Shown here piece by piece: positions 1 to 33,659 of a stretch of DNA of 35,820 nucleotides; the first letter of the stretch is position 1, and each line of letters opens with the position of its first letter. This DNA is from a phage. Where the stretch lies: the NCBI GenBank assembly GCA_037431425.1, contig GCA_037431425.1_4129.3, one strand, 5' to 3'. Made by a program: the position numbers and the translations under genes. The notes under the pieces were generated by a model that did not search any database, was not told the DNA's origin, and was given only the letters and a program-made list of their open reading frames with translations.

Positions 1-1313
1 GTAGCATTAGGTGGTAGTACAGTTGGTGTTAGTTGTTGAGTATCACCGACTGAAGTTAATTTAGCACTTGTTGGAGATACTGATACACTTGCAACAGGAA
101 CTGGAATGTTAACAGTTACCACGCAAACTTTAGAAAATCCACCATCAGATGTGGTTGCTGTAATATTTGCAGTACCGTTTGCAACAGCAGTGATTAAACC
201 AGTTGGACTTACCGTTGCGACACCCTCAGCAGAAGTAGTGTATGAAATATCTTTACGACGAGCGTTATCTGGAATAACAGATGCAGTTAGTTGTTGAGTA
301 GCACCTACAGAAGTTAGGGTTGCTGTCAACGGAGTCATATTAATACCAGTTACTGGGATCGTTACATCAATCACTGATTCAGCAGTTTTAGCACCATCAT
401 CAGTTGTAACAGTAATAGTTGTAGTACCGTTATCAACAGAAGTTACTAGACCAGTATTACTAACTTTTGCTACGTCTGGATATGAAGAAACATATGAAAC
501 TGCTTTATTGGATGCAGTTGCAGGAGCAACGGTTGTTTCTAATTGTTTAGTATCACCTAATGTTGAGAATGTATAAGTACTAGGAGTCATAGTGACACCC
601 GATACTGGCGTTTTCACTGTGATCGTAGAAGTGTCAGTTTTAGCACCATCTTCGGTTGTAGCTGTAATCACCACTGTACCGTTAGCAACACCAGTTACTA
701 GACCAGAAGTAGAGTCTACAGTTGCTATATCAGGTGTTGCTGAAGACCACGTGACGTTTTTATTAGTTGCATCATCAGGAGATATTGTGGCAGTTAATTG
801 TTGAGTACTGCCAACGTTAATTGATGCAGTTTTAGGAGAAACAACAACACCACTAACTGGAGTTGTTACAGTAACAGTACATTTTGAAACAAATGAACCA
901 TCAACTGTAGTTGCAATTACATCAGTACTGCCATCTGCAACACCAGTTACCATACCAGTTGGACTTACAGTTGCGAAGCGTGGTATACTGGATGACCAAA
1001 TAACACTTTTATCACTTGCATCATCGGGTGATACGGTAGCTGTTAGTTGATGAGTTTTACCAACACCAAGAGATAGAGTTGAAGGAGAAACAACAACACC
1101 ACTAACTGGAGTTGTTACAGTAAATGCACAAACATCTGTGAAACCACCATCATGAGTAGTAACTGTTACATTTGCATTACCATTAGCACGGGCAATTGCT
1201 AAACCAGTTTGAGCATCAACTTCAACTATTGTTGGAGCAGAGGAACTATAACTTACTGTTGGATCCTGGATTAATTGTAGCTGATAGTTGTTGTGTGCTA
1301 CCAACTTTAAGTG
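1..1313 (-). CDS. Partial ORF encoding at least five tandem bacterial Ig-like (Big_2-type) domains; C-terminal part of a probable virion decoration/fibre-like protein; runs off the window
   Basis: Manual reverse-strand translation in the +1 frame relative to ORF 1246..1716 is open from about 1313 to the window edge and gives repeated ~80-aa units (e.g. ...TPVSGVVVSPSTLSLGVGKTHQLTATVSPDDASDKSVIWSS...). No in-frame ATG near its 5' end. Confidence 0.6.
60..1245. repeat. Tandem ~240-bp DNA repeats (the Ig-like domain coding units)
   Basis: Near-identical segments recur with ~243-bp period, e.g. gaaacaacaacaccactaactggagttgttacagta at 840-875 and 1081-1116; related units at ~330 and ~575. Confidence 0.6.
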
Positions 1314-1716
1314 CTACTACTTTGGGTGAAATAATAACACCATTAACTGGTGTAGTATAATCACGTTTAACCACACGACCATTGTTCAATTTAATAATAC
1401 GACCCATATAAAGAGTAGCATATCCCTTACTAATCCCATCATCTACATAAATCATAAATGAATTGTCTTGAACCATATTAATTGCGTCTACTGGCTTAAC
1501 AGTATTTGGAATGTCGATACCACGGGTATCATACCAACACATGGAAACTTTGTAATATATATCACCATTATCATTGATGAGATCATACACGTTACTGGAA
1601 CGTTGACGGTTAATATATAAAGTTTCGGTTAATACCTTACCATCGATTTTAGCGACAGAAACTTTAATACCACCAATACCAAATGGCAATTTACCTTCAC
1701 TAGATATTGCTTTCAT
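1246..1716 (-). CDS. N-terminal domain (156 aa) of the Ig-like repeat protein; probable late/virion protein
   Basis: ORF with ATG at 1716 (reverse strand), SD-like AAGGAAAG just upstream, stop TAG at 1246-1248; a late-promoter box lies ~38 nt upstream. Confidence 0.6.
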   Translation of the reverse strand: MKAISSEGKLPFGIGGIKVSVAKIDGKVLTETLYINRQRSSNVYDLINDNGDIYYKVSMCWYDTRGIDIPNTVKPVDAINMVQDNSFMIYVDDGISKGYATLYMGRIIKLNNGRVVKRDYTTPVNGVIISPKVVALKVGSTQQLSATINPGSNSKL

Positions 1717-16920: not shown

Positions 16921-16928
16921 TATAAATA
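16921..16928 (+). promoter_or_regulatory. T4-type late promoter box TATAAATA
   Basis: Exact TATAAATA 32 nt upstream of the ATG at 16960. Confidence 0.55.
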
Positions 16929-16959: not shown

Positions 16960-19659
16960 ATGGCAAATAAAATATATGGTGGTATTGATGTTACACACAA
17001 TGTCACAGTAAAAGGTAAGAGAAGTGCTCAGAGCATCAATGATGACGTATTTGATGAAAACGGTAATCTCACAATAGATGCATATACACAAGATGATATG
17101 TTAGAAATGGTTGGTATGTTACCAATTTCTCGTTATGGTACACAAAACTATCTACCTGCTGGTGTTAATGGTACAACAGTTGGTTCTTCAGAAAATGTGA
17201 ATTCCAGAAATACAAAATTATTTTTAGAAGATGATAACACTTTAGTAATGTTACGTCCAGGTACTAATGGTAGTACTCAAGGTGTTTATTATAGTTATAT
17301 GACCCAAGCAGTAGGTACAACAAATACAAGTCGTATGGTTAATACTACTCGTGCATATAAACCCAATTACTTTGGTGCAGCATACGCAGTTTATTTGTAC
17401 CCAAGTAGTAATGATATTACTTGCGGTTTAGTGAGAATGGAGAATACCGATGGTACATATGTTGATAAAGTTTTTGTGTCAGATAATAATGGTACATTGA
17501 ATGATGCAATGCACACTGGTATTATTCTATCAGATCATACAGCAGTACAACCTTTTGGTGCAATACAATTTGTTATTCGTGCAGAAGATGGTGCATTATA
17601 TTTTTTTAGTTTAGATACACCAAATAATACTCTTAAAATATCCGTCACTAAAGTTACTTTTAGTCCAAGTAATAACCCAGGTGGTGGTACTTATAGTATT
17701 ACTAGAATTACTGGTTGGACTACAAGAACTTTTTATAATGCAATGATAGCTGATGAGAACATTGTTCCTACGATGAAAATAAATTCAACAAATGCCAATG
17801 ATACTCCATACGTTTTAATTCCAAGCGGTATTATTGGGTTTGGTGTTTATATGACAGATCCAGATTTATATGTTGCACAGAAATCAGGTACATCTACATT
17901 CAAATTTAGATTATGTGGTGATATGTGGGTGAGTAATGGTAGATATGACATACGACCACAACATAGTTTTAGTATGACTTTTGATGTTGCAACGAAGCAA
18001 TGTGCACTCGATAATATGACAACGACTGCACCTGTTGCTGTTTATGACAATGGTTCTAGCATGAATGCAACTGGACCTTGCTTGACAACTGACCCATTTT
18101 ATCTTCATGCAGGTGCACGTAATATTTTCAGTAATTATTGCTATGTTCCATCAACAGGGGATGCGTTTTGTTCATTTTCACCAAACCTAGCAGAACCATT
18201 GAATGTATCATATGCAAAATACCCACCAAAATCTTTATTTGATTTGATGGATGTTAGAAGTGTGTCAGCAACTAATTTTATTAATGGTGTAGTATCACCA
18301 AGATTTGGTTCAGCAGTTGGTTCATACCAAGTAGGTGTAGAGTTATTACCAAATAACAGTACTAAACAATATTCAAGACGTTCTGGTGATGGTCGTTTTT
18401 TTCCATCCTATGCTGTTCATAAATCTACACCCAACTTTACATTCAAGTCGTTGAATTATGGTACAGTACCTGGTTATGAACCAACACCTGACCGAAATTT
18501 CATAACCACACCAGAATCACGCATTTTTATAAGTTCAATATCTGGTTCAAACGTCACTACTAATGGTGGTGTTTTGGTTGCTGACATTAGAACATCAACA
18601 CCAATTAGTTTTGATTATAAAGGTAATGTACTGAATAATGGTACAATCAGTATGTCTCAAGATATAATGAATGCTATTAGGAATTCAGAATTTGCTAAAG
18701 TTGCTGGTTCTTGGGATATATCCCCAGCATCAGTAAAAACATTATCAGTTTTCGTTCCACAACAAACTGATATTCCTGTTTTCGCGGTTCTTGCTGCAAC
18801 AACTAATTCCAGAGGACTATATATTCGTATGATTGAATTAGGTGTTAATACAAGAACAGGAGATATTACAACGTGGGCATTTAAACGTTTAGTACATGAA
18901 AGTGTTCAAGCTCTGGATTACAAAACTGATGCCGGATATTATCTTGATAGTGGAAGTATTGGTATTACTATATATGATGCTGGTTCTTTTTACTTCATTG
19001 GTGGTGGTATTCCAGGTTTCTTTCCTACAGTTGGTAATACAGCTTCACCTTTTTTTCGTGCTACTGTAGATAAAGCAAGTAAGCAATTTAATAATTTCCA
19101 TATAGCTGGTTATCGTCCCATCTATGCATTAGACGGTCAACCGTTCGCTTTACCTGGTATTGGATTTGGTATTCTTCAAAGTATAGATCTTCAAAACAAA
19201 ACCATTTTTAGAACATATGGTACTACATTAGAAGATTATAATGCATGGACTGATAAAGGGAATCCATTCATTTGCGTTGTTTCACAAGACGTTGCTCAAG
19301 GTTTTATTATATACTTCACCGAAGAGACACCAGTACTGATATCTGGTAAGCACTATACGTTACCAATATCAAATATTGATTTAACAAAAGTGAAAGCAAA
19401 TCCTGCGAATACTACATTTTATGTGTATATTAAATTAGTGCAGGGTATTGCAAAGTATCATATATCAACAACTGAATTAGCTGAAACTCAGTCAATATTC
19501 TGGATTGGTACAGTGAAAACTAATGATTTACAAATAACCGAAATTAATATCGTTAAACGTTCGCGTTTAGATCTGTTTGGTGCATCCTATGACGCTGCCG
19601 GAAGTTCATTCCCAGTTAGTTCTGGTTTTCCTTCAGGTTCTGGCAATGTGAATTGGTAA
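16960..19659 (+). CDS. Large late protein (899 aa), paralog A; probable virion fibre/adhesin-like protein
   Basis: Late-promoter-driven; N-terminal MLPISRYGTQNYLP and C-terminal module SQDVAQGF...SSGFPSGSGNVNW shared with the other two operon members. Confidence 0.7.
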   Translation: MANKIYGGIDVTHNVTVKGKRSAQSINDDVFDENGNLTIDAYTQDDMLEMVGMLPISRYGTQNYLPAGVNGTTVGSSENVNSRNTKLFLEDDNTLVMLRPGTNGSTQGVYYSYMTQAVGTTNTSRMVNTTRAYKPNYFGAAYAVYLYPSSNDITCGLVRMENTDGTYVDKVFVSDNNGTLNDAMHTGIILSDHTAVQPFGAIQFVIRAEDGALYFFSLDTPNNTLKISVTKVTFSPSNNPGGGTYSITRITGWTTRTFYNAMIADENIVPTMKINSTNANDTPYVLIPSGIIGFGVYMTDPDLYVAQKSGTSTFKFRLCGDMWVSNGRYDIRPQHSFSMTFDVATKQCALDNMTTTAPVAVYDNGSSMNATGPCLTTDPFYLHAGARNIFSNYCYVPSTGDAFCSFSPNLAEPLNVSYAKYPPKSLFDLMDVRSVSATNFINGVVSPRFGSAVGSYQVGVELLPNNSTKQYSRRSGDGRFFPSYAVHKSTPNFTFKSLNYGTVPGYEPTPDRNFITTPESRIFISSISGSNVTTNGGVLVADIRTSTPISFDYKGNVLNNGTISMSQDIMNAIRNSEFAKVAGSWDISPASVKTLSVFVPQQTDIPVFAVLAATTNSRGLYIRMIELGVNTRTGDITTWAFKRLVHESVQALDYKTDAGYYLDSGSIGITIYDAGSFYFIGGGIPGFFPTVGNTASPFFRATVDKASKQFNNFHIAGYRPIYALDGQPFALPGIGFGILQSIDLQNKTIFRTYGTTLEDYNAWTDKGNPFICVVSQDVAQGFIIYFTEETPVLISGKHYTLPISNIDLTKVKANPANTTFYVYIKLVQGIAKYHISTTELAETQSIFWIGTVKTNDLQITEINIVKRSRLDLFGASYDAAGSSFPVSSGFPSGSGNVNW

Positions 19660-19669
19660 TGGAGAGAAT

Positions 19670-20260
19670 ATGTCTTATAAATTTAGAGCAGATGTGGAAG
19701 CTTATGCTTCCGTTAAATCACAAGGAAAAAATACTGGGACCACGATAACTGTTCGTTCTGGTAATGTGTATCAAGCTGATGCAAATGGGAATATTGATAT
19801 ACCAGTCATGAGTACAGATGATGTGAATTACATTACCAGTTCGTTTCCGTTATCACAATTTGGACCACTTTACAGTGATGAACCATTAGGTATTACTTCT
19901 GCGGGTTTCAATTTAACTTTCAGCAAAGAATTACCGTTATTCATGGCGGGAGCGGCGTATACCCTCCCAGCAAAAACAATAACAGATCCTGGTGTTTCTG
20001 GTACTAATATTGAAACACATTATGTATATGTTATATTAGATGTTGGGGTAGCTGACTACCTCATTTCTAAAACTCAACGACCTGAAAGTAGTGTTAATAT
20101 GTACATCGGAAAACTAACAGTTTTCCCAGATGGCATTACAGGGGTCAGTATAAATAAAGTGTCAAGATTTGACAACTTCAGAGTAAGTTCTACAAAAATT
20201 GGTTCAGCTATCCCTATCAGTTCTGGTTCACCAGATGTGAATGGTATGATAGAATGGTAA
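19670..20260 (+). CDS. Late protein (196 aa), paralog B; corresponds to the shared C-terminal module
   Basis: C-terminal ...HYVYVILDVG...YIGKLTV...NKVSRF...ISSGSPDVNGMIEW aligns with the C-termini of paralogs A and C; SD GGAGAG. Confidence 0.65.
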   Translation: MSYKFRADVEAYASVKSQGKNTGTTITVRSGNVYQADANGNIDIPVMSTDDVNYITSSFPLSQFGPLYSDEPLGITSAGFNLTFSKELPLFMAGAAYTLPAKTITDPGVSGTNIETHYVYVILDVGVADYLISKTQRPESSVNMYIGKLTVFPDGITGVSINKVSRFDNFRVSSTKIGSAIPISSGSPDVNGMIEW

Positions 20261-20270
20261 AGGAATATAT

Positions 20271-23012
20271 ATGGCTTCTAGACGAATTATAGGAAACGCA
20301 GATATACTAGGGAATTTAAAAATTAATGGAAAGTATGCATTACGTTCCCTTAATGGTGTTCCTGCTGACTCTGCTGGTAAAATCACTTATCAATATTATG
20401 ACAAAGCGGAAGTAAATCAGATGTTTGATATGCTTCCAGTTTCAAGGGTAGGTGATCAAGATTACCTACCAATGAGTATTAACGGAACTTTTGAAGGTGC
20501 TTCTTCCTTTTCATTTGCAAAAATAATGCAACCTTGTATCATTGAAAATGATGGTACTGGTGTAATTTTACGTGCAGGTACAAATGGAAGTTCTTATGGT
20601 TACTATTATACTTATATTAAAAATATAAGAGATATAGAAACACTAACTCAAGATAATATAATTACAACCAATACGATGTATAGACCGTCTGTGCTACCAA
20701 GTACTGATTACATTTATGAATTTTATGGGTCAAATGCATATGAATTACTATTTTGGGAATCAACTGATAGAACATCATATTACCTTACATTAACAAATGA
20801 AACATTGAATGAATCAGCACACAAGCATTGCAGAATTCCAAAAACAGCAATAACAAATAAACCAATATATGCACACATCGTAAATGATTCAGTTTATATA
20901 TGGTGTATGGATTCAAGTGTATTTAGTAGTGTTCGCGGGTGTGCATTTATTATATACACAGTACCTTTAACTGCATTTAATACTGGTTCAGTTTCTACCG
21001 TAACACAGATTGGTGGTTATTCAGGAAGAACTATAAGAGATGCAACATATACTGCATCTAATAATATTCGCGTTTATGATAGCTATTCTATTTTAGGTTC
21101 AGGTGGTGATGCACTAATAGTATATGATAATGGTGTTTCCAGAATAGATTATTGGGAAAATAACGTATTTAATACCCAAGCAGTTCTTAGCCCAGATGGT
21201 ACAAAAATAAGAGTTGCGATCTATCCAGGATTCCGTGTTTTCACTGAAACAAAAACATCTAGTGTATATGCACTTGGTATTAGCTTTACATATGATATCA
21301 GTACTAAAACAATGACACTTGATGGTTCTGAACGTGGTCCAATCAGAGTATCAGCTAATACATCAACTGGTAGTATAACAGTAAGAAACCCGTTTTCAAT
21401 CAATATGGAAAACTTTACAGGGTTTTATGACGGTGCACTTGGCAACTATGGTTCAATCTGTCAAACTTCTGATGGTTTTGTTTTCACTACCAAAGCAAGA
21501 TGGACATCCACACCAACATATGCAGTACAAACATACAAAGTTTCTGGTACACCTTATGATAGTTGGGTCGCTAAAACACGTACTGCTAGTAATTTAAAAC
21601 GTGTCGAAGTAATGCCAGTTTATGGCTCCCCTGTCGGTGAAAACTTAATAGGTGTTCGTTTCGTAGATAAACGTAAGATACTTGTTGCATGTTCTGGCAC
21701 TGCTGATGGAATTTCTTATGGTTATGATAGTACAGTTTTTACTGAAATAGGTGAGAATCCGACTTATGTTTATAAAAACTTGGAACAAAATACCACAATG
21801 AATGGTTTTGCACCATCAAGTAATAGACACTATTTAAGTACTGATTACAAATATGCAGGTATGATAACATTGGTTGATGCAAATGGAAATGTCAGCACTT
21901 ATGGTTCTTCGTTAATAGAAGACATCGATAAACCAGCGTATGGAAAATTCGACCCAGTTACAATGGACTTCGACAGTAATAGATATGAAATTTCAGGAAC
22001 AACATTATCAAGTATAGGTGATAATGCAATTGCTAAAGCTGGATTGTCTGGAATAACTGATCATAAAACTGTTTTTTATTATGTACCTGATACTACATAT
22101 TCTAAATCGATTGCAGTCACTTCTGCATTAAACGGTACTACCAATGTGTGTTATATTATTTTTTCCGAAATATCATGTAGTGCAGTTGGTACAAGTGGTA
22201 CTATAATTTTACGTGGTATTAATGTTGATACAGCAAGATATACATCAATGACGAATACATACCAAATTTCACCAAATGAAATGGTCAAACGTTGGGCTGG
22301 TATGACGGTTTCTAAGTTTAATGGTTTTAACTACTTAGGCGTGAACATTTTATATGGCATTGATACCCCAGGTTGGACTCGTTATCCTAACATGATTGCT
22401 AAAGTGAAAAATGGTATTATTTCAAGTCAACGATATATGGAAACAACTTATATTTCAAACGCACAATTTGATATAGGTACAATTCCAGGGATTGGGTTTG
22501 GATATTACCAAATGAACAAAAACGATTATCAAACTAAATCAGTTTTTGCTGTATGTGGTACTACTGAAGCAGATATGGATAAACTAATATCTGGTAATGA
22601 AACGATATCACAGTACTTAGTTGTTGCTTCTCAGGACGTGGCACAAGGGTTTCATGTATACTTTTCACAAGAAGTACCAGTTTTCTTGGGTGGAAAGTTT
22701 GCAAAGATACCACCGACTATGATAGACTTATCTACTATAAGTACTACACCAGAGAATTCAACATTCTACATATATGCGGTGATGGATAGAGATACATCCA
22801 CAGCATCGTATCAGATATCACTACATCAATTATCAGAAACTATGACATCAACATACATTGGTAAGATAGTAACTAATAATAATGGTATTGCATCAATCGA
22901 GTCTGAAAAAGTTTCCAGATTCTTGCTATACCGTCCAAGTACCTACAATCGTGGTTCTGCGATCCCAGCAAGTTCTGGTGTTCCGTCAGGAACAGGTACA
23001 CGTTGGAATTAA
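20271..23012 (+). CDS. Large late protein (913 aa), paralog C; probable virion fibre/adhesin-like protein
   Basis: N-terminal MLPVSRVGDQDYLP and C-terminal SQDVAQGFHVYF...SSGVPSGTGTRWN collinear with paralog A. Confidence 0.7.
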   Translation: MASRRIIGNADILGNLKINGKYALRSLNGVPADSAGKITYQYYDKAEVNQMFDMLPVSRVGDQDYLPMSINGTFEGASSFSFAKIMQPCIIENDGTGVILRAGTNGSSYGYYYTYIKNIRDIETLTQDNIITTNTMYRPSVLPSTDYIYEFYGSNAYELLFWESTDRTSYYLTLTNETLNESAHKHCRIPKTAITNKPIYAHIVNDSVYIWCMDSSVFSSVRGCAFIIYTVPLTAFNTGSVSTVTQIGGYSGRTIRDATYTASNNIRVYDSYSILGSGGDALIVYDNGVSRIDYWENNVFNTQAVLSPDGTKIRVAIYPGFRVFTETKTSSVYALGISFTYDISTKTMTLDGSERGPIRVSANTSTGSITVRNPFSINMENFTGFYDGALGNYGSICQTSDGFVFTTKARWTSTPTYAVQTYKVSGTPYDSWVAKTRTASNLKRVEVMPVYGSPVGENLIGVRFVDKRKILVACSGTADGISYGYDSTVFTEIGENPTYVYKNLEQNTTMNGFAPSSNRHYLSTDYKYAGMITLVDANGNVSTYGSSLIEDIDKPAYGKFDPVTMDFDSNRYEISGTTLSSIGDNAIAKAGLSGITDHKTVFYYVPDTTYSKSIAVTSALNGTTNVCYIIFSEISCSAVGTSGTIILRGINVDTARYTSMTNTYQISPNEMVKRWAGMTVSKFNGFNYLGVNILYGIDTPGWTRYPNMIAKVKNGIISSQRYMETTYISNAQFDIGTIPGIGFGYYQMNKNDYQTKSVFAVCGTTEADMDKLISGNETISQYLVVASQDVAQGFHVYFSQEVPVFLGGKFAKIPPTMIDLSTISTTPENSTFYIYAVMDRDTSTASYQISLHQLSETMTSTYIGKIVTNNNGIASIESEKVSRFLLYRPSTYNRGSAIPASSGVPSGTGTRWN

Positions 23013-26854: not shown

Positions 26855-26907
26855 ACATATACCATTATATACTCTAAATAATATCATCAACTACAGGAGA
26901 TGATATT

Positions 26908-27282
26908 ATGAGTGTACTAGAAATTATTGTTTCAAAAATTTTAATTCCATATTGGAAGCCGATTTCTTTTGCGTTATTACTCGGTGGTGCGGCATTATCA
27001 GGTTGGAAAGCTAATACTTATTATACTGGTTATCAGCAAAGTATCGAGCAACAAATAGCCAAACAGGTTGATGTCGCACTTGATAAAATGCAACAGGAAA
27101 ATGCAAAAAATTACATTGAAACAAAAAAAATCATGGAAGATAATGCTAAAGTTATTGAAACGAAAGTTCCTTATATAGTAGAACGCAAAGTTTATAAGAA
27201 TGTGTGTTTAGATGAAGATGGCGTGAAAATTCTAAATGATCTAAAACAAAATTCACAAGCAATGAGGAATAAGTTAAAATGA
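26908..27282 (+). CDS. Putative i-spanin (inner-membrane spanin, Rz-like)
   Basis: N-terminal TM helix, then charged helical periplasmic region; SD AGGAGA; immediately precedes a lipoprotein gene. Confidence 0.55.
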   Translation: MSVLEIIVSKILIPYWKPISFALLLGGAALSGWKANTYYTGYQQSIEQQIAKQVDVALDKMQQENAKNYIETKKIMEDNAKVIETKVPYIVERKVYKNVCLDEDGVKILNDLKQNSQAMRNKLK

Positions 27283-28617: not shown

Positions 28618-29016
28618 ATGCTTAAAGAATTAGATTTTTCAAACTTAGAAATTATCAGTGCTGTTAAAAACATCTCCGACATGGGAGATGAGAAATCAGT
28701 GCTTGTTACTATTACTTTTGTAAAAGAAGAAGATAGTTATAGTCATTTGACTGGTATTGAAGAACTAATTCATAAAACCAATCTTGAAAATAATGGTAAA
28801 CTCATCAAACTTCAGGCATCCTATATCCAAAAAACATCAAATTTTATAGACATAAATAATATAGTCAAGGTGGTATATAATCATCCTGACCACAAATATA
28901 GGAATACATCAAGAAATGAAAATATTGCGAAAGATACTAACATCATAGAAGATGTTGACTTTATCAATACTATTTTTGATCGTTGCTCTATTGATTTGAA
29001 AAAAGTATACATGTAA
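28618..29016 (+). CDS. Hypothetical protein
   Basis: ORF 2 nt after the upstream stop. Confidence 0.5.
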   Translation: MLKELDFSNLEIISAVKNISDMGDEKSVLVTITFVKEEDSYSHLTGIEELIHKTNLENNGKLIKLQASYIQKTSNFIDINNIVKVVYNHPDHKYRNTSRNENIAKDTNIIEDVDFINTIFDRCSIDLKKVYM

Positions 29017-29045
29017 TGGGACAATAATTGAACCTGTGATATAAT
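29017..29045 (+). promoter_or_regulatory. Promoter: -35-like TGGGACA plus extended -10 TGaTATAAT
   Basis: TGGGACAATA at 29017-29026, TGATATAAT at 29037-29045; same motif and spacing as at 7215-7244. Confidence 0.5.
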
Positions 29046-29326
29046 GTATATTGTAAAATGACAACGGACATTGTAAAAAATGGACACTGAAAACCTAATT
29101 CACTTGAAAATGTAAAGGATAGATGAGCTTTACCGTTGTAGCGAACAGCAGAAGAAACCCGTTAGAGTACTGGCATTCAAACAAACACGATGTAAGACCA
29201 CGAATCACGGCGACACGGCTGTATAAAGAACTCCGATAAGCATACAGAGAGTTCCTAGATAGATGTATAAGGTTCGCACCTTACCAGATTTGCTAAGGGA
29301 GTTTAAGAATGGCGAACGCAATTTTT

Positions 29327-29355
29327 ACAAGAAAGTTGCGTCCAAAATTTGAGAA
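29327..29355. repeat. Direct repeat copy 1 (29 nt)
   Basis: ACAAGAAAGTTGCGTCCAAAATTTGAGAA; 26/29 identical to copy 2, 153 bp away. Confidence 0.8.
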
Positions 29356-29479
29356 CAAGTACTACTTTGATCGAATAGAGTTAGTACTGAGTGCTGTTGA
29401 TGAAAAGACCAGCGACCGTTGCATATGACTGCGATAGAGAGAAACCGAGCAACCCGCTTTCGCTCTCTAAATCTTTGGT

Positions 29480-29508
29480 ACGAGAAAGATCCGTCCAAAA
29501 TTTGAGAA
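29480..29508. repeat. Direct repeat copy 2 (29 nt)
   Basis: ACGAGAAAGATCCGTCCAAAATTTGAGAA. Confidence 0.8.
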
Positions 29509-29546
29509 ATTCGCAATTCGATAATATCCGATGCCATCAGCGTCAA

Positions 29547-29573
29547 GAAGAGACTTAATTGTCTCTTTTTTAT
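29547..29573 (+). terminator. Rho-independent terminator closing the non-coding island
   Basis: AAGAGAC-ttaatt-GTCTCTT followed by TTTTTT. Confidence 0.65.
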
Positions 29574-29712
29574 TACTTTCATTCCCCTGTGGGGGGATGA
29601 AATAGTCCTCAACAAATCCCGTCAAGTTATTAAAATACATTATCATTATTCAGAAGTAACAAGTTTACGAAGTAAACGAAGTGACTTCTTGGGTTGCGAG
29701 AGAACGAAGTGA

Positions 29713-30141
29713 ATGAGTAACACAACGAAAATATATAATAAATCTGAATTAACACAATTGTTATTCAAAGAATATTTTGAGTTTCAGATAAAAGACGAAC
29801 ATCAATTACCACAACAATACTTGAAAAGAATTAAAGATACGTCAGTAATTACTAAAGAAACTAATTTTTATAATAGTATTTTGGATTTCGTTAAATCAGT
29901 TCATACGACAAGACCTATTGTAGTTTTGTTTTTTGATAAATCTATCCCTTTAGTAGTTCCCGAAAATGTATTTTTTATCTCAGAAACTGATTTAAATAAC
30001 CAAAGTACTGTAAGTAGATTAAGAAATTGCTTACTTGTAGTATGTGATTCCTATTTGTATAATAACAGAATACTATGGGATAGAAGTAAACGTAATGCAG
30101 TTTCGGAAATGAACCCTGAACTTACATTTATTATTAACTAA
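29713..30141 (+). CDS. Hypothetical protein
   Basis: 142-aa ORF; first gene after the non-coding island. Confidence 0.5.
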   Translation: MSNTTKIYNKSELTQLLFKEYFEFQIKDEHQLPQQYLKRIKDTSVITKETNFYNSILDFVKSVHTTRPIVVLFFDKSIPLVVPENVFFISETDLNNQSTVSRLRNCLLVVCDSYLYNNRILWDRSKRNAVSEMNPELTFIIN

Positions 30142-30147
30142 ATACCA

Positions 30148-30155
30148 TATAAATA
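30148..30155 (+). promoter_or_regulatory. T4-type late promoter box TATAAATA
   Basis: Exact TATAAATA 18 nt upstream of ATG 30174, with AAGGAGAG SD between. Confidence 0.5.
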
Positions 30156-30173
30156 ACTCTAAGGAGAGATTTT

Positions 30174-30614
30174 ATGGAAAATATTGAAAATTTGAGACAT
30201 GTTATGGATTTTATCATTGATACTGAAGAAGATAGTGCTTATGATGAAATCCTACTAACTTTTATTGAAAATAGTTTGTTTTTAAGTTCTGCTGCACATA
30301 ACTGGCATTTACAAAGCCGATTCTATACTAAGCATCTTCAACTGGATGAACTATACAAAGAGTTACCTGAGTATGTTGATGCATTTGTAGAGGGTATTAT
30401 GAACACACGCGGTGCATTACAGGTAGGAACTGGTAACAGTTATCGTTTTACCCCTATCGAAGATTGTGTACCAATTCTTGAAGAATATGCGAGTCAATGT
30501 AAAGCCATTCATGCTATGCTTGAGGAAGCTGAAGACTATGGCAGTACTAACACATTAGAAGATATTATGAGTTTTGTAGACGGTGTGCTTTACAAACTTA
30601 AAGTTTTACAATAA
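30174..30614 (+). CDS. Dps/ferritin-like four-helix-bundle protein (late)
   Basis: AAHNWHLQSRFYTKHLQLDELYKEL...DAFVEGIMNTRGA parallels Dps ...[28 protein letters not shown]...DEIAERIRALGG. Confidence 0.55.
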   Translation: MENIENLRHVMDFIIDTEEDSAYDEILLTFIENSLFLSSAAHNWHLQSRFYTKHLQLDELYKELPEYVDAFVEGIMNTRGALQVGTGNSYRFTPIEDCVPILEEYASQCKAIHAMLEEAEDYGSTNTLEDIMSFVDGVLYKLKVLQ

Positions 30615-30621
30615 AATATAT

Positions 30622-30651
30622 GGAGAGTCATTGTGACTCTCCTTTTCTTTT
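30622..30651 (+). terminator. Rho-independent terminator
   Basis: GGAGAGTCA-ttg-TGACTCTCC followed by TTTTCTTTT. Confidence 0.8.
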
Positions 30652-30662
30652 GGAGAATATAT

Positions 30663-31016
30663 ATGAGTGATTACCGAGTAACATCTGGACTAATGGCCCG
30701 ACTTATTGAAGCAGTTCCTAAAGAGGATTATGAAGCTATTTCAGATCGTCTTTTTGACGCAGATTCTAAACTCCATATTACATATGATGGTACATTAATT
30801 TACAGTACTGATATTGATATTCCTAGCTATGAATTTGAGATTTCTTTTGGTAGCAAACTAAGTACTGAAGAATTCGCTCGAAAATGTGAGCGTGAAGGGC
30901 TGTGTATTGATATCAGTTCAGTTCAGCCATACACGTCACTGTGGTATGATGGTGCTGATAGTCCAATGTCTACTACAACTTTACAGGATTTTCTAAATGC
31001 AAATAAAAAAGATTAA
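30663..31016 (+). CDS. Hypothetical protein
   Basis: Track ORF starts at 30633 inside the terminator hairpin; ATG 30663 with GGAG 7 nt upstream is the likelier start. Confidence 0.5.
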   Translation: MSDYRVTSGLMARLIEAVPKEDYEAISDRLFDADSKLHITYDGTLIYSTDIDIPSYEFEISFGSKLSTEEFARKCEREGLCIDISSVQPYTSLWYDGADSPMSTTTLQDFLNANKKD

Positions 31017-31389
31017 ATTCCACCAGCATTGTTCTATACATGAATGTGATGATTGTGGTATGAACATGAGTGACATTTATACAGTTTCCTGTAAAGGATT
31101 CAAATTCACACACGGTGAACCTGCTTATTGTTATGGGACAGAAGAAGGTGATATCGAAGTAGTACTGAAAGAATTGTTCCAGTACTTGCAAAGTGCTGGT
31201 TATGATGTTACAATGCCCACATATTACGAAGATGATTATGACTCACATGTAGAAGAAAATACATATTATAATCAATTTGTTCATGGTAATGGATTTATCA
31301 CATACCTTCATGAGAATGGTATTGAGGTAAAAACTAAGTACACAAGTGATGATTACGAAAGTGATGACTCAATGGAGATTGAAGATTGA
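30997..31389 (+). CDS. Hypothetical acidic protein
   Basis: ORF overlapping the upstream 3' end; start uncertain. Confidence 0.45.
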   Translation: MQIKKIKFHQHCSIHECDDCGMNMSDIYTVSCKGFKFTHGEPAYCYGTEEGDIEVVLKELFQYLQSAGYDVTMPTYYEDDYDSHVEENTYYNQFVHGNGFITYLHENGIEVKTKYTSDDYESDDSMEIED

Positions 31390-31970
31390 AAGCAAAAGAC
31401 CTAGCAGCACTGTTGATGCAGAATCCTGAAATGGAAGTTTATCATGAGCATATGCATATTGATGATATGTATGAAGCGTACTATTCACCAGAAAATGTAT
31501 CTGGTATTGAAATCACACCAAGTGGTGTATTCATCAGTACTGAACGTATTGATTACAATTCCCAGCAAGAAATCAAAACTCCACATAAAAAACCTCGCAT
31601 TGGTGCTATTGAACTTGTATTTCAACAGGATCGTCTGGTTGAGTACAACGAAGACGATGGTTCTACTCGAACTGATGTTGAGAATGTTGTTTTTCGTTTT
31701 TATAATGCATATGAAGACCCAACAACAGGTGAAGATTTCTTCCGTGAACTATTAAATGATGGGGAAGTTTATGGTGAAGATGGAACTGTGTTTGTATTGG
31801 ACCCTAATTATGATCCAGATCACAACACATGGCAATTCTATACACCACAAGATGTAATGGAGGTTAAAGTACTTACTGACATTGACGATATGTGGAATCC
31901 AGTATATACTTCGATGACATTTGACGAAGCAAAGAAATACTTCGTTTCTAAACTAAACATTAAACAATAG
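31386..31970 (+). CDS. Hypothetical acidic protein
   Basis: Track start is TTG at 31386 overlapping the upstream stop; first ATG is 31416. Confidence 0.45.
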   Translation: MKAKDLAALLMQNPEMEVYHEHMHIDDMYEAYYSPENVSGIEITPSGVFISTERIDYNSQQEIKTPHKKPRIGAIELVFQQDRLVEYNEDDGSTRTDVENVVFRFYNAYEDPTTGEDFFRELLNDGEVYGEDGTVFVLDPNYDPDHNTWQFYTPQDVMEVKVLTDIDDMWNPVYTSMTFDEAKKYFVSKLNIKQ

Positions 31971-32754: not shown

Positions 32755-33082
32755 AGGACAAACTCAATATAAGTGTATTGAAGAAATCAGAAAGAAAGAC
32801 GGAACACTTTTTGACAGGAAATTAAAACAAGAATATAAAGACCTAAGAGATGTTATACGAAATGAAAGTTTCGGTGGGAAGCGTAGACAGAAGATTTATG
32901 AATTTCTGAAGAATGGTTTAGAAATTCAAGTCAATGGACTTCATTGTGTACAAACTAAAAACGATCCAGATATTTTACGTCTTTTAAAAGAGGGTAAAAT
33001 AGAAATGTTCAATACCCCAATTTCATCCTATGGTAATAGATTAAAATGTAAGCACACATACTTAAGGATTAAAAATGGGTAA
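32744..33082 (+). CDS. Hypothetical basic protein
   Basis: ATG 32744 with GAGG 6 nt upstream (track starts at 32732); overlaps the tk start. Confidence 0.5.
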   Translation: MALRGQTQYKCIEEIRKKDGTLFDRKLKQEYKDLRDVIRNESFGGKRRQKIYEFLKNGLEIQVNGLHCVQTKNDPDILRLLKEGKIEMFNTPISSYGNRLKCKHTYLRIKNG

Positions 33083-33659
33083 ATTAGTATATTACTATGG
33101 TAGTATGTCTAGTGGTAAAAGTACTCATCTTTTGCAAAAAGCATATAACCATAAGAAAAATGGAATGAAGGTAATTTACTTAACCAGTGCACTTGATGAT
33201 CGTTATGGAACTGGAAAGATTACTTCAAGGATTGGCATCGAAGCTGAGGCTGAAGTAATTCCAAAAAATGACATTAGTGTTCTTCTTAAAGTTAAAGAAA
33301 CTCTCAATAATGATGTTGACATTAACAGTATCTATGTTGATGAATGTCAATTTTTAAACAGGGAACAGATTGACCATTTAGCTGATATCGCAGATAATTA
33401 TGGTGTTGATGTTTCTTGTTATGGAATCCGAACAGATTTTGAATCCAACCTATTTGAAGGTTCACAAAGACTGTTTGAAATAGCTGATGACATACACGAA
33501 CTTAAGAACGTGTGTGAGAATAAGAAGTGTGGTAAAGAAGCTACCATGAATGCTCGTATAGTTGAAAGTACGGAGAAAGTGTTTATTGGTGGTAACGAAT
33601 CATATAAAAGCCTATGCAGAAAATGTTACAAAGACTATATGAGGAATAAAAATGGTTGA
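33075..33659 (+). CDS. tk: Thymidine kinase
   Basis: Walker A YYGSMSSGKST, YVDECQF and C-terminal Cys pairs, collinear with T4 Tk; SD AAGGA. Confidence 0.92.
   Translation: MGKLVYYYGSMSSGKSTHLLQKAYNHKKNGMKVIYLTSALDDRYGTGKITSRIGIEAEAEVIPKNDISVLLKVKETLNNDVDINSIYVDECQFLNREQIDHLADIADNYGVDVSCYGIRTDFESNLFEGSQRLFEIADDIHELKNVCENKKCGKEATMNARIVESTEKVFIGGNESYKSLCRKCYKDYMRNKNG

Follow-up and report, generated by a model that had tools for sequence, protein, structure and literature searches.

A predicted Dps-like mini-ferritin of the DUF5856/RI.-1 family behind late-type promoter boxes in an Asteriusvirus jumbo coliphage

The 35,820-nucleotide (nt) stretch of phage DNA analysed here (contig GCA_037431425.1_4129.3 of GenBank assembly GCA_037431425.1; hereafter the window) comes from the genome of an Asteriusvirus jumbo coliphage and carries a gene for a 146-amino-acid (aa) protein of the family DUF5856, to which T4 RI.-1 also belongs. 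The reading that we favour, with a probability of roughly 55%, is that this protein is a Dps-like mini-ferritin that is made late, oxidises iron and is partly associated with the virion. An earlier note made from the sequence alone had proposed a late Dps/ferritin-like gene at this place. The finding is correct in its core and already known: the protein is annotated in GenBank in a 99.3% identical entry (WAE77108.1 of Escherichia phage ph0011) and the family is held in Pfam and PHROGs. Its ferritin-like nature, its late box and its detection in virions have each been reported before, in database notes and two papers. The gene and its signals are as follows.

30138..30144, + strand: conserved late-promoter core CTAAATA (invariant TAAATA at 30139-30144), 36 nt before the ATG
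30148..30155, + strand: exact T4-type late box TATAAATA (core ATAAATA at 30149-30155), 26 nt before the ATG, a lineage-specific second candidate promoter
30161-30168, + strand: Shine-Dalgarno (SD) sequence AAGGAGAG, read directly and kept in all Asteriusvirus relatives
30174..30614, + strand: coding sequence of 146 aa for a DUF5856/T4 RI.-1-family protein, predicted to be a Dps-like four-helix bundle (Pfam, PHROG, AlphaFold2 (AF2) model, PDB profile search and conservation)
Within the coding sequence 30174..30614: candidate ferroxidase ligands H45, H54, D69 and E73, with H42, D58 and Y61 also conserved
30622..30651, + strand: intrinsic terminator with a 9-bp stem, a 3-nt loop and a T-run (fold energy, positional conservation and annotation in the UE-S1 and Munch records)

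The window protein matches Pfam DUF5856 (PF19174) with 95.2 bits against a cut-off of 34.6 (E=5e-27), over profile positions 1-94 of 94, and it matches phrog_858 (E=1.3e-33), which PHROG labels 'starvation-inducible transcriptional regulator'. Because T4 rI.-1 belongs to the same family (E=5e-33 on DUF5856), the window protein is, by these profile matches, a jumbo-phage homolog of T4 RI.-1. Members of the family were found by tblastn in 176 GenBank phage records, among them T4, RaK2-like jumbo phages, Aeromonas T4-like phages and Vi1-like Klebsiella phages, under names as varied as 'ferritin-like protein', 'starvation-inducible DNA-binding protein', 'MobD.6' and 'rI.-1'; one GenBank depositor's note gives an HHpred match to the Dps entry 4M32. 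An exhaustive profile search of the family returned 748 cluster representatives at 50% identity. Among 154 diverse members, H45, H54, D69 and E73 are kept in 152, 152, 151 and 152 sequences, respectively, and H42 and D58 are less conserved than these four. The family-invariant residues H45, H54, Y61, D69, E73, Y140 and K141, each kept in 144-152 of the 154, are all found in the window protein. A C-terminal LYKLK motif is also conserved, and in the RaK2-like members the N-terminus is extended by a very acidic stretch of ~20 aa, which is missing from the T4 and Vi1-like members.

Longer forms with unrecognised extensions make up about one third of the top 150 family representatives, and the C-terminal extensions of these homologs matched no Pfam or PHROG family. 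In homolog P0167 the partner domain bears the PHROG label 'cytidyltransferase', and the genes around P0167 and P0044 gave no clue to function. A 352-aa fusion in a JGI metagenome contig (L034, 6001-7059) joins an N-terminal phrog_760 domain to a C-terminal DUF5856 domain. Its N-terminal domain has a sub-threshold match to DUF2213, the XkdF prohead-protease family (E=0.19), and the fusion gene is located two small open reading frames (ORFs) downstream of a portal gene.

The relationship to Dps becomes significant solely with family profiles, the single-sequence PDB search and the Pfam Ferritin model being too weak alone. With the window sequence by itself, the top 11 PDB matches were all Dps proteins at weak scores (best E=0.0035). 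A profile of 27 family sequences gave a best E-value of 1.4e-4, and with a profile of 94 sequences S. aureus Dps was matched at 7e-9 and MrgA at 4e-8; 23 of the 25 matches were in the Dps family, which supports Dps homology despite the sub-threshold score on Pfam Ferritin. The AF2 model (predicted local distance difference test score, pLDDT, 84) consists of four long helices arranged as a four-helix bundle, and the best structural matches of the protein are Dps proteins. In Dps, H31 and H43 of one subunit and D58 and E62 of its two-fold partner make up the ferroxidase centre. Aligned with Listeria Dps (1qgh), the window protein is collinear at all four positions (H45=H31, H54=H43, D69=D58 and E73=E62), the H-x14-D-x3-E ligand spacing is identical in the window protein and Dps, and H42=H28, D58=D47 and Y61=Y50 form further residue pairs. 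H31 and H43 of Listeria Dps are the residues mutated in PDB 2bjy, 2bk6 and 2bkc, according to the entry titles. On these alignments, DUF5856 is a divergent, phage-specific branch of Dps-like mini-ferritins with the predicted metal-site signature retained, and the Dps/ferritin-like identity first suggested for the protein is upheld by the predicted fold, the profile matches and the aligned ligands. Literature searches returned no paper linking rI.-1 or DUF5856 to Dps or ferritin, and the presence of a complete Dps ferroxidase signature throughout the family, T4 RI.-1 included, seems to be unreported in the literature searched.

The charge of the protein bears on how it could act. E. coli Dps binds DNA with a Lys-rich tail, and such a basic tail is not universal among Dps proteins. 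The window protein has an isoelectric point (pI) of 4.34, with 27 acidic and 9 basic residues, and the net charge over its first 25 residues is -8, opposite in sign to that of the E. coli tail. Judged from this composition, Dps-type DNA binding via a basic tail is therefore unlikely, and the labels 'DNA-binding' and 'transcriptional regulator' are doubtful. The idea that the protein could be packaged 'with DNA' by direct binding, which had also been put forward, is likewise unlikely at a pI of 4.3. That the protein is nevertheless a DNA-binding protein or a transcriptional regulator, as propagated database names have it, is very improbable. The sole support for it is found in the labels of PHROG 858 and of many GenBank and RefSeq records, and those labels derive from the Dps name; a Pfam search shows no helix-turn-helix or other DNA-binding domain, and DNA protection without DNA binding is known among true Dps proteins (title of PDB 1o9r).

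If the protein is an iron-oxidising mini-ferritin, a late mRNA of ~0.5 kb would start near 30150 or 30161, end near 30650 and yield an abundant product. The protein would assemble via Dps-like two-fold interfaces, probably into a cage, and would bind and oxidise Fe(II) at the inter-subunit His/His/Asp/Glu site, consuming O2 or H2O2. Fenton chemistry and hydroxyl-radical damage would be limited in this way, both for the replicating and packaging phage DNA, which amounts to hundreds of kb per particle, and for the exhausted host cell. Since the protein is strongly acidic, this protection would operate without direct DNA binding. Some of the protein would be associated with, or enclosed in, virions.

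Late expression had been proposed from an exact TATAAATA box, which is present at 30148-30155 (+). The box fits the Asteriusvirus consensus N-ATAAATA, an A lies at 30161, 6 nt past the core, and the prohead protease gene gp227c has its box at the same spacing from the SD and the ATG. Counting alone shows no enrichment of the 8-mer in the window (4 copies vs 7.3 +/- 2.4 expected). Each of the four copies precedes an ORF that is on the same strand, and for three copies the distance is 26-45 nt. A late-type box stands in promoter position in only ~5 genes of the window, and a scan for the sigma-70 consensus found 71 sites vs 71 expected. The other three copies and a further CTAAATA box are listed here.

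16921-16928, + strand: TATAAATA, 39 nt before the 899-aa ORF 16960..19659, a homolog of virion protein gp323c
1754-1761, - strand: TATAAATA, 45 nt before the minus-strand ORF 1246..1716
20149-20156, + strand: TATAAATA, inside ORF 19670..20260 and 122 nt before the 913-aa ORF 20271..23012
26874-26880, + strand: CTAAATA, 34 nt before ORF 26908..27282

The count test was replaced by tests of position and of virion-gene enrichment in 150 kb of the relative phAPEC6, with 152 annotated genes, of which 41 are virion genes verified by mass spectrometry (MS). Upstream zones were defined as the 80 nt next to a gene start and make up 4% of the sequence tested. The exact TATAAATA occurs in 9 copies there, 8 of them upstream of genes. 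ATAAATA occurs in 34 copies on both strands, and 25 of these (74%) fall in upstream zones; composition-matched 7-mers occur in 83-136 copies each (44 for TAAATAA, which overlaps the motif), with 2-18% in upstream zones. ATAAATA precedes 15 of the 41 virion genes vs 9 of the 111 others (Fisher p=7e-5), and the genes that it precedes include those for the major capsid, scaffold, prohead protease, sheath and baseplate. At these sites the preceding base is not conserved, and an A lies 6 nt past the core in 19 of 25, which is probably the transcription start. CTAAATA shows a weaker trend: 9 of its 23 copies are upstream of genes, and it precedes 6 of the 41 virion genes vs 3 of the 111 others (p=0.012), including gp306c, the ortholog of the window gene, at -36.

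Comparison of relatives separates the two boxes of the window. The exact TATAAATA is found at this site in the window and ph0011 only, whereas UE-S1 has TATAATAA, Turkey3 has TAGAATAA, JNE01 has TAGAAGAA, and phAPEC6 and 121Q have GAGAATAA. The CTAAATA located 10 nt upstream of it at 30138-30144, which overlaps the TAA stop of the upstream 142-aa ORF 29713..30141, is invariant in 7 Asteriusvirus genomes. When 18 distinct upstream regions of RaK2-like phages, representing five or more genera and on average 54% identical, were aligned, TAAATA and the ATG were the sole invariant columns, with A, C or G as the preceding base. In Serratia phage BF the upstream stop has moved to a preceding TAG and TAAATA is still kept, and the corresponding site holds an exact (T)ATAAATA in the distant relatives Munch, a Vibrio jumbo phage and an uncultivated phage. 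The window thus appears, by alignment, to combine an ancestral late box at -36 with a lineage-specific canonical box at -26, and both boxes predict late expression. Of the late promoter in the earlier note, the presence of a late-type box upstream of the gene stands; the exact 8-mer on which it was based is private to the window and ph0011, and the conserved box is CTAAATA. This distinction between a conserved and a private late box seems not to be stated in the literature searched. It means that a perfect T4-type box can have been added in one lineage alone, beside the element that is truly conserved, and it provides a usable, predicted late-promoter consensus for Asteriusvirus, N-(A/C)TAAATA with transcription starting ~6 nt downstream.

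A gp55-like late sigma factor is present in this phage group: phAPEC6 gp237c is annotated 'sigma factor for late transcription', and the CBB paper describes CBB_244 as gp55-like, with no gp33 or gp45 homologs detected. The window itself does not contain the sigma-factor gene. The same paper proposes late promoters of the ATAAATA type and lists CTAAATACGGTATC, which holds a CTAAATA box, as the predicted late promoter Porf_169 of CBB_169. The RaK2 paper contains no promoter analysis.

The gene ends at the hairpin GGAGAGTCA-TTG-TGACTCTCC at 30622-30642, which is followed by TTTTCTTTT at 30643-30651. The 9-bp stem is perfect, with 5 GC pairs, and the hairpin folds at -16 kcal/mol (z = -3.5 vs shuffles). 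The terminator keeps its position in 20 or more related loci with at least five different, perfectly complementary stems, and all the RaK2-like loci that were examined have a GC-rich hairpin with a T-run 3-10 nt past the stop, as do T4 and a Bragavirus. The strong SD AAGGAGAG, with a gap of 5 nt (30169-30173) to the ATG, the 146-aa ORF, which starts with ATG and carries H42-N-W-H45 and L57-DELYKEL-64, and the perfect terminator are all located where they had been described. The late mRNA is predicted to be monocistronic; because no terminator was found between the upstream ORF 29713..30141 and the DUF5856 gene, read-through from upstream is possible. The description of the locus as a self-contained late cassette holds in that the gene has a late-type promoter and an SD in front of it and a terminator behind it, and fails in that no terminator lies upstream and the T4 homolog is classed as 'middle'.

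Orthologs of the protein have been detected in purified particles. phAPEC6 gp306c, the syntenic ortholog with 86% identity to the window protein and the same SD and terminator, was identified in cesium chloride (CsCl)-purified virions by 6 unique peptides with 65.8% coverage, the 7th highest of 62 proteins; its calculated mass is 16.89 kDa vs 16.90 kDa in the phAPEC6 paper. CBB_169 was identified in CBB virions by 3 peptides from low-mass gel slices (26.3% coverage, residues 55-80 and 128-141), and the CBB authors' note on it reads 'Ferritin-like superfamily'. The published MS of these two orthologs bears out the expectation that the protein might be present in virions, and its packaging is plausible.

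Several observations weigh against the reading of a late, iron-oxidising, partly virion-associated mini-ferritin. On Pfam Ferritin (PF00210) the protein scores 14.2 bits vs a cut-off of 24.5 (E=0.042), below the threshold for formal membership, and the Foldseek E-values for Dps-type matches are just ~1e-2. The A-B loop is 3 residues shorter than that of Dps in the alignment to 1qgh, and there is no B-C loop helix, the AF2 model showing coil at 80-94, a weak point that depends on the model. The model is monomeric and cannot display the two-fold interface that the ferroxidase site requires. The activity, metal content and oligomeric state of DUF5856 proteins are predicted only, and late timing in this phage group is predicted from the boxes. 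T4 rI.-1 is classed as 'middle', not late, at both the RNA and the protein level, and is dispensable, since it is frameshifted in some laboratory T4 stocks. Regarding virions, the comparison table of the CBB paper shows the ortholog as not detected in the GAP32 or RaK2 proteomes, data sets that are incomplete, and CBB's own MS missed portal and sheath; RaK2 gp015 is not listed as structural in the RaK2 paper. Co-purification of gp306c with particles is possible, because the phAPEC6 virion list includes evident non-structural proteins (thymidylate synthase, a RecA-like protein and SSB).

An extension of the favoured explanation is that the protein is genuine capsid-internal cargo. Loaded into the prohead, it would accompany the DNA and act in the next host, during ejection or afterwards, where it could for instance deliver iron or shield the DNA that enters against iron/peroxide chemistry. 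To our knowledge, T4 RI.-1 has not been reported in T4 virions and is not among the known T4 head proteins. No targeting sequence or processing site was identified in the window protein, and the CBB peptides are silent on the N-terminus. Two independent proteomes of CsCl-purified virions contain an ortholog, at high coverage in that of phAPEC6, which is consistent with cargo, as are late-type boxes like those of structural genes, the acidic N-terminal segment that distinguishes the RaK2-like members, and the inner body described for the phAPEC6 capsids. The metagenomic fusion of DUF5856 to a DUF2213-like domain, encoded two small ORFs after a portal gene, points in the same direction, though the DUF2213 match is below threshold. 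The GAP32 and RaK2 virions, however, gave no detection, and a cage loaded with iron might band together with the phage in CsCl. Internal cargo is a tentative proposal. A still bolder one would have DUF5856/RI.-1 proteins form active iron-oxidising mini-ferritin cages that are loaded into jumbo-phage capsids via the head-assembly pathway and protect the packaged and ejected genome from Fenton chemistry or carry iron to the next host, with the T4 rI.-1 lysis-inhibition phenotype as an effect of iron or oxidative stress; this full scheme is improbable.

In T4, the RI.-1 protein is made during infection, and its overproduction prolongs the life of infected cultures and has an effect jointly with RIII, a phenotype compatible with a protective role. 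The same phenotype underlies a different explanation, in which the protein has an accessory, non-enzymatic part in setting the time of lysis, via protein-protein contacts with an RIII-like partner of the kind proposed for T4 RI.-1, and the ferritin-like fold is merely a scaffold. Plasmid overexpression of rI.-1 prolonged lysis inhibition, acted in synergy with rIII and relieved RIII toxicity, and the T4 gene sits in the rI operon. RaK2, however, has no t, rI, rI.1 or rIII homologs according to its authors, and this speaks against a function dedicated to lysis inhibition; the DUF5856 gene is nevertheless conserved throughout the RaK2 clade and also in Vi1-like phages. The near-absolute conservation of the four metal-ligand positions in 150 or more sequences is hard to square with a pure scaffold, and the T4 phenotypes are mild overexpression effects that a general cell-protective activity explains equally well. 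A role confined to lysis timing is therefore unlikely for the window protein.

The locus is well conserved among relatives. Over 29700-31100, identity is 99.4% with Escherichia phage ph0011 and 90-94% with UE-S1, phAPEC6, PBECO4, 121Q-type phages and others. The order of non-coding block, small ORF, DUF5856 gene and terminator is common to Asteriusvirus, Alcyoneusvirus, Mimasvirus, Eneladusvirus and unclassified relatives. Because this order is syntenic across at least five genera, the arrangement is, from comparative evidence, ancestral and not an insertion, and the earlier claim that the cassette was "inserted among early genes" is without support. The nearby ORF 28618..29016 is labelled 'structural protein' in ph0011.

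Further features of the surroundings were observed. A thymidine kinase gene is located 3 kb from the DUF5856 gene in the window, 1.2 kb from it in CBB and 0.6 kb from it in T4; the gene order in T4 (record 58819-60344) is the reverse of that in RaK2-like phages (33075-33659 vs 30174-30614 in the window). This proximity may have survived from a T4-like neighbourhood in an ancestor. Past the terminator, at the junction 30652-30663, phAPEC6 and most relatives have ~630 extra bases (L002, 3934-4581) encoding a protein of ~205 aa, of which the last 55 aa alone are annotated in phAPEC6 (gp305c). The insert has no counterpart in the window, ph0011, UE-S1 or Turkey3, and its product is an apparent paralog of window ORF 31386..31970, judged by eye from the likeness of their N-termini. 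The 196-aa and 913-aa ORFs at 19670-23012 of the window correspond to a region of the phAPEC6 record (239511-242924) with one 114-nt gene (gp322c) over 3.4 kb, and the 142-aa ORF that precedes the Dps-like gene, though intact in phAPEC6, is unannotated there. Both cases are probably annotation gaps in that record.

The 700-bp gap at 29017-29712, upstream of this small ORF, holds a candidate for an undescribed structured RNA of RaK2-like jumbo phages. An ORF-free block of ~550 nt (29018-29600, + strand, possibly to ~29700) is bounded by a promoter TGGGACA-N13-TGATATAAT (29018-29045, found by eye), with the layout of CBB's second promoter class ('TGAAACG'), and by a terminator-like hairpin (29545-29570). 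The block is highly conserved, with long invariant stretches, in Asteriusvirus, Alcyoneusvirus, Mimasvirus and Eneladusvirus, and RNAalifold predicts 59 pairs, 21 of which have compensatory double changes. It has no Rfam match even at E<=1, and tRNA and Rfam scans of the window found nothing. Inside the block, phAPEC6 annotates an 85-aa minus-strand ORF (gp307). Its most conserved 19 nt (GATCCGTCYAAAATTTGAG) also occur in two non-jumbo IMG/VR contigs of ~93 kb (L038, 1264-1287; L039, 2869-2888), where the likeness does not extend beyond 20-24 nt.

The significance of the mini-ferritin reading lies first in the family itself, which is widespread and is still a 'domain of unknown function' in Pfam and, misleadingly, a 'transcriptional regulator' in PHROGs and RefSeq. 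The intact Dps ferroxidase signature, in combination with a late, virion-associated product in jumbo phages, leads to a testable hypothesis of phage-encoded iron/peroxide detoxification late in infection or in the particle, and this hypothesis offers a simple re-reading of the T4 rI.-1 phenotype.

Comparison with known systems places the locus as follows. With T4-type late promoters it shares the exact 8-mer TATAAATA, a gp55-like sigma factor in the group and the concentration of the core upstream of virion genes. In contrast to T4, the first T is not conserved here, C or G may replace the first A of the core, gp33 and gp45 homologs are reported missing in CBB, and the promoters are predicted from sequence. 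phAPEC6 gp306c and CBB_169, the orthologs with published virion MS, were both found in purified particles, and CBB_169 also has a CTAAATA late box; neither has the exact TATAAATA of the window, and phAPEC6 has the extra ~205-aa gene after the terminator. T4 RI.-1 has in common with the window protein the DUF5856 family, the same invariant H..H, H, D, E set and a small single domain, and its gene likewise ends at a strong intrinsic terminator and lies near a thymidine kinase gene. It differs in its length of 128 aa, its pI of 5.6, the lack of the acidic N-terminal segment and a sequence identity of ~20%, and its gene is the last of the rI.1-rI-rI.-1 operon, with a reported early and late promoter.

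Bacterial Dps proteins (Listeria innocua 1QGH, S. aureus 2D5K and B. subtilis MrgA 2CHP) share with the window protein their size, the four-helix bundle and the four collinear ferroxidase ligands. The window protein differs from them in its sub-threshold score on Pfam Ferritin, a 3-residue deletion in the A-B loop, the lack of a predicted B-C helix, the conserved C-terminal LYKLK and its extreme acidity; it is encoded by a phage and predicted to be late rather than stress-induced, and its dodecamer and activity are putative. Encapsulins, in which ferritin-like cargo (EncFtn/Flp) is enclosed in HK97-fold shells, offer a functional analogy. Here, no targeting peptide was identified, the interior location is putative, and the shell is a DNA-filled virus capsid and not a metabolic compartment. 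The likeness lies in the pairing of a ferritin-superfamily protein with an HK97-fold shell, given that the phAPEC6 capsid is described as HK97-fold and that the ortholog is in the particle proteome. If DUF5856 cages were indeed loaded into capsids, they would be a viral counterpart of encapsulin ferritin cargo.

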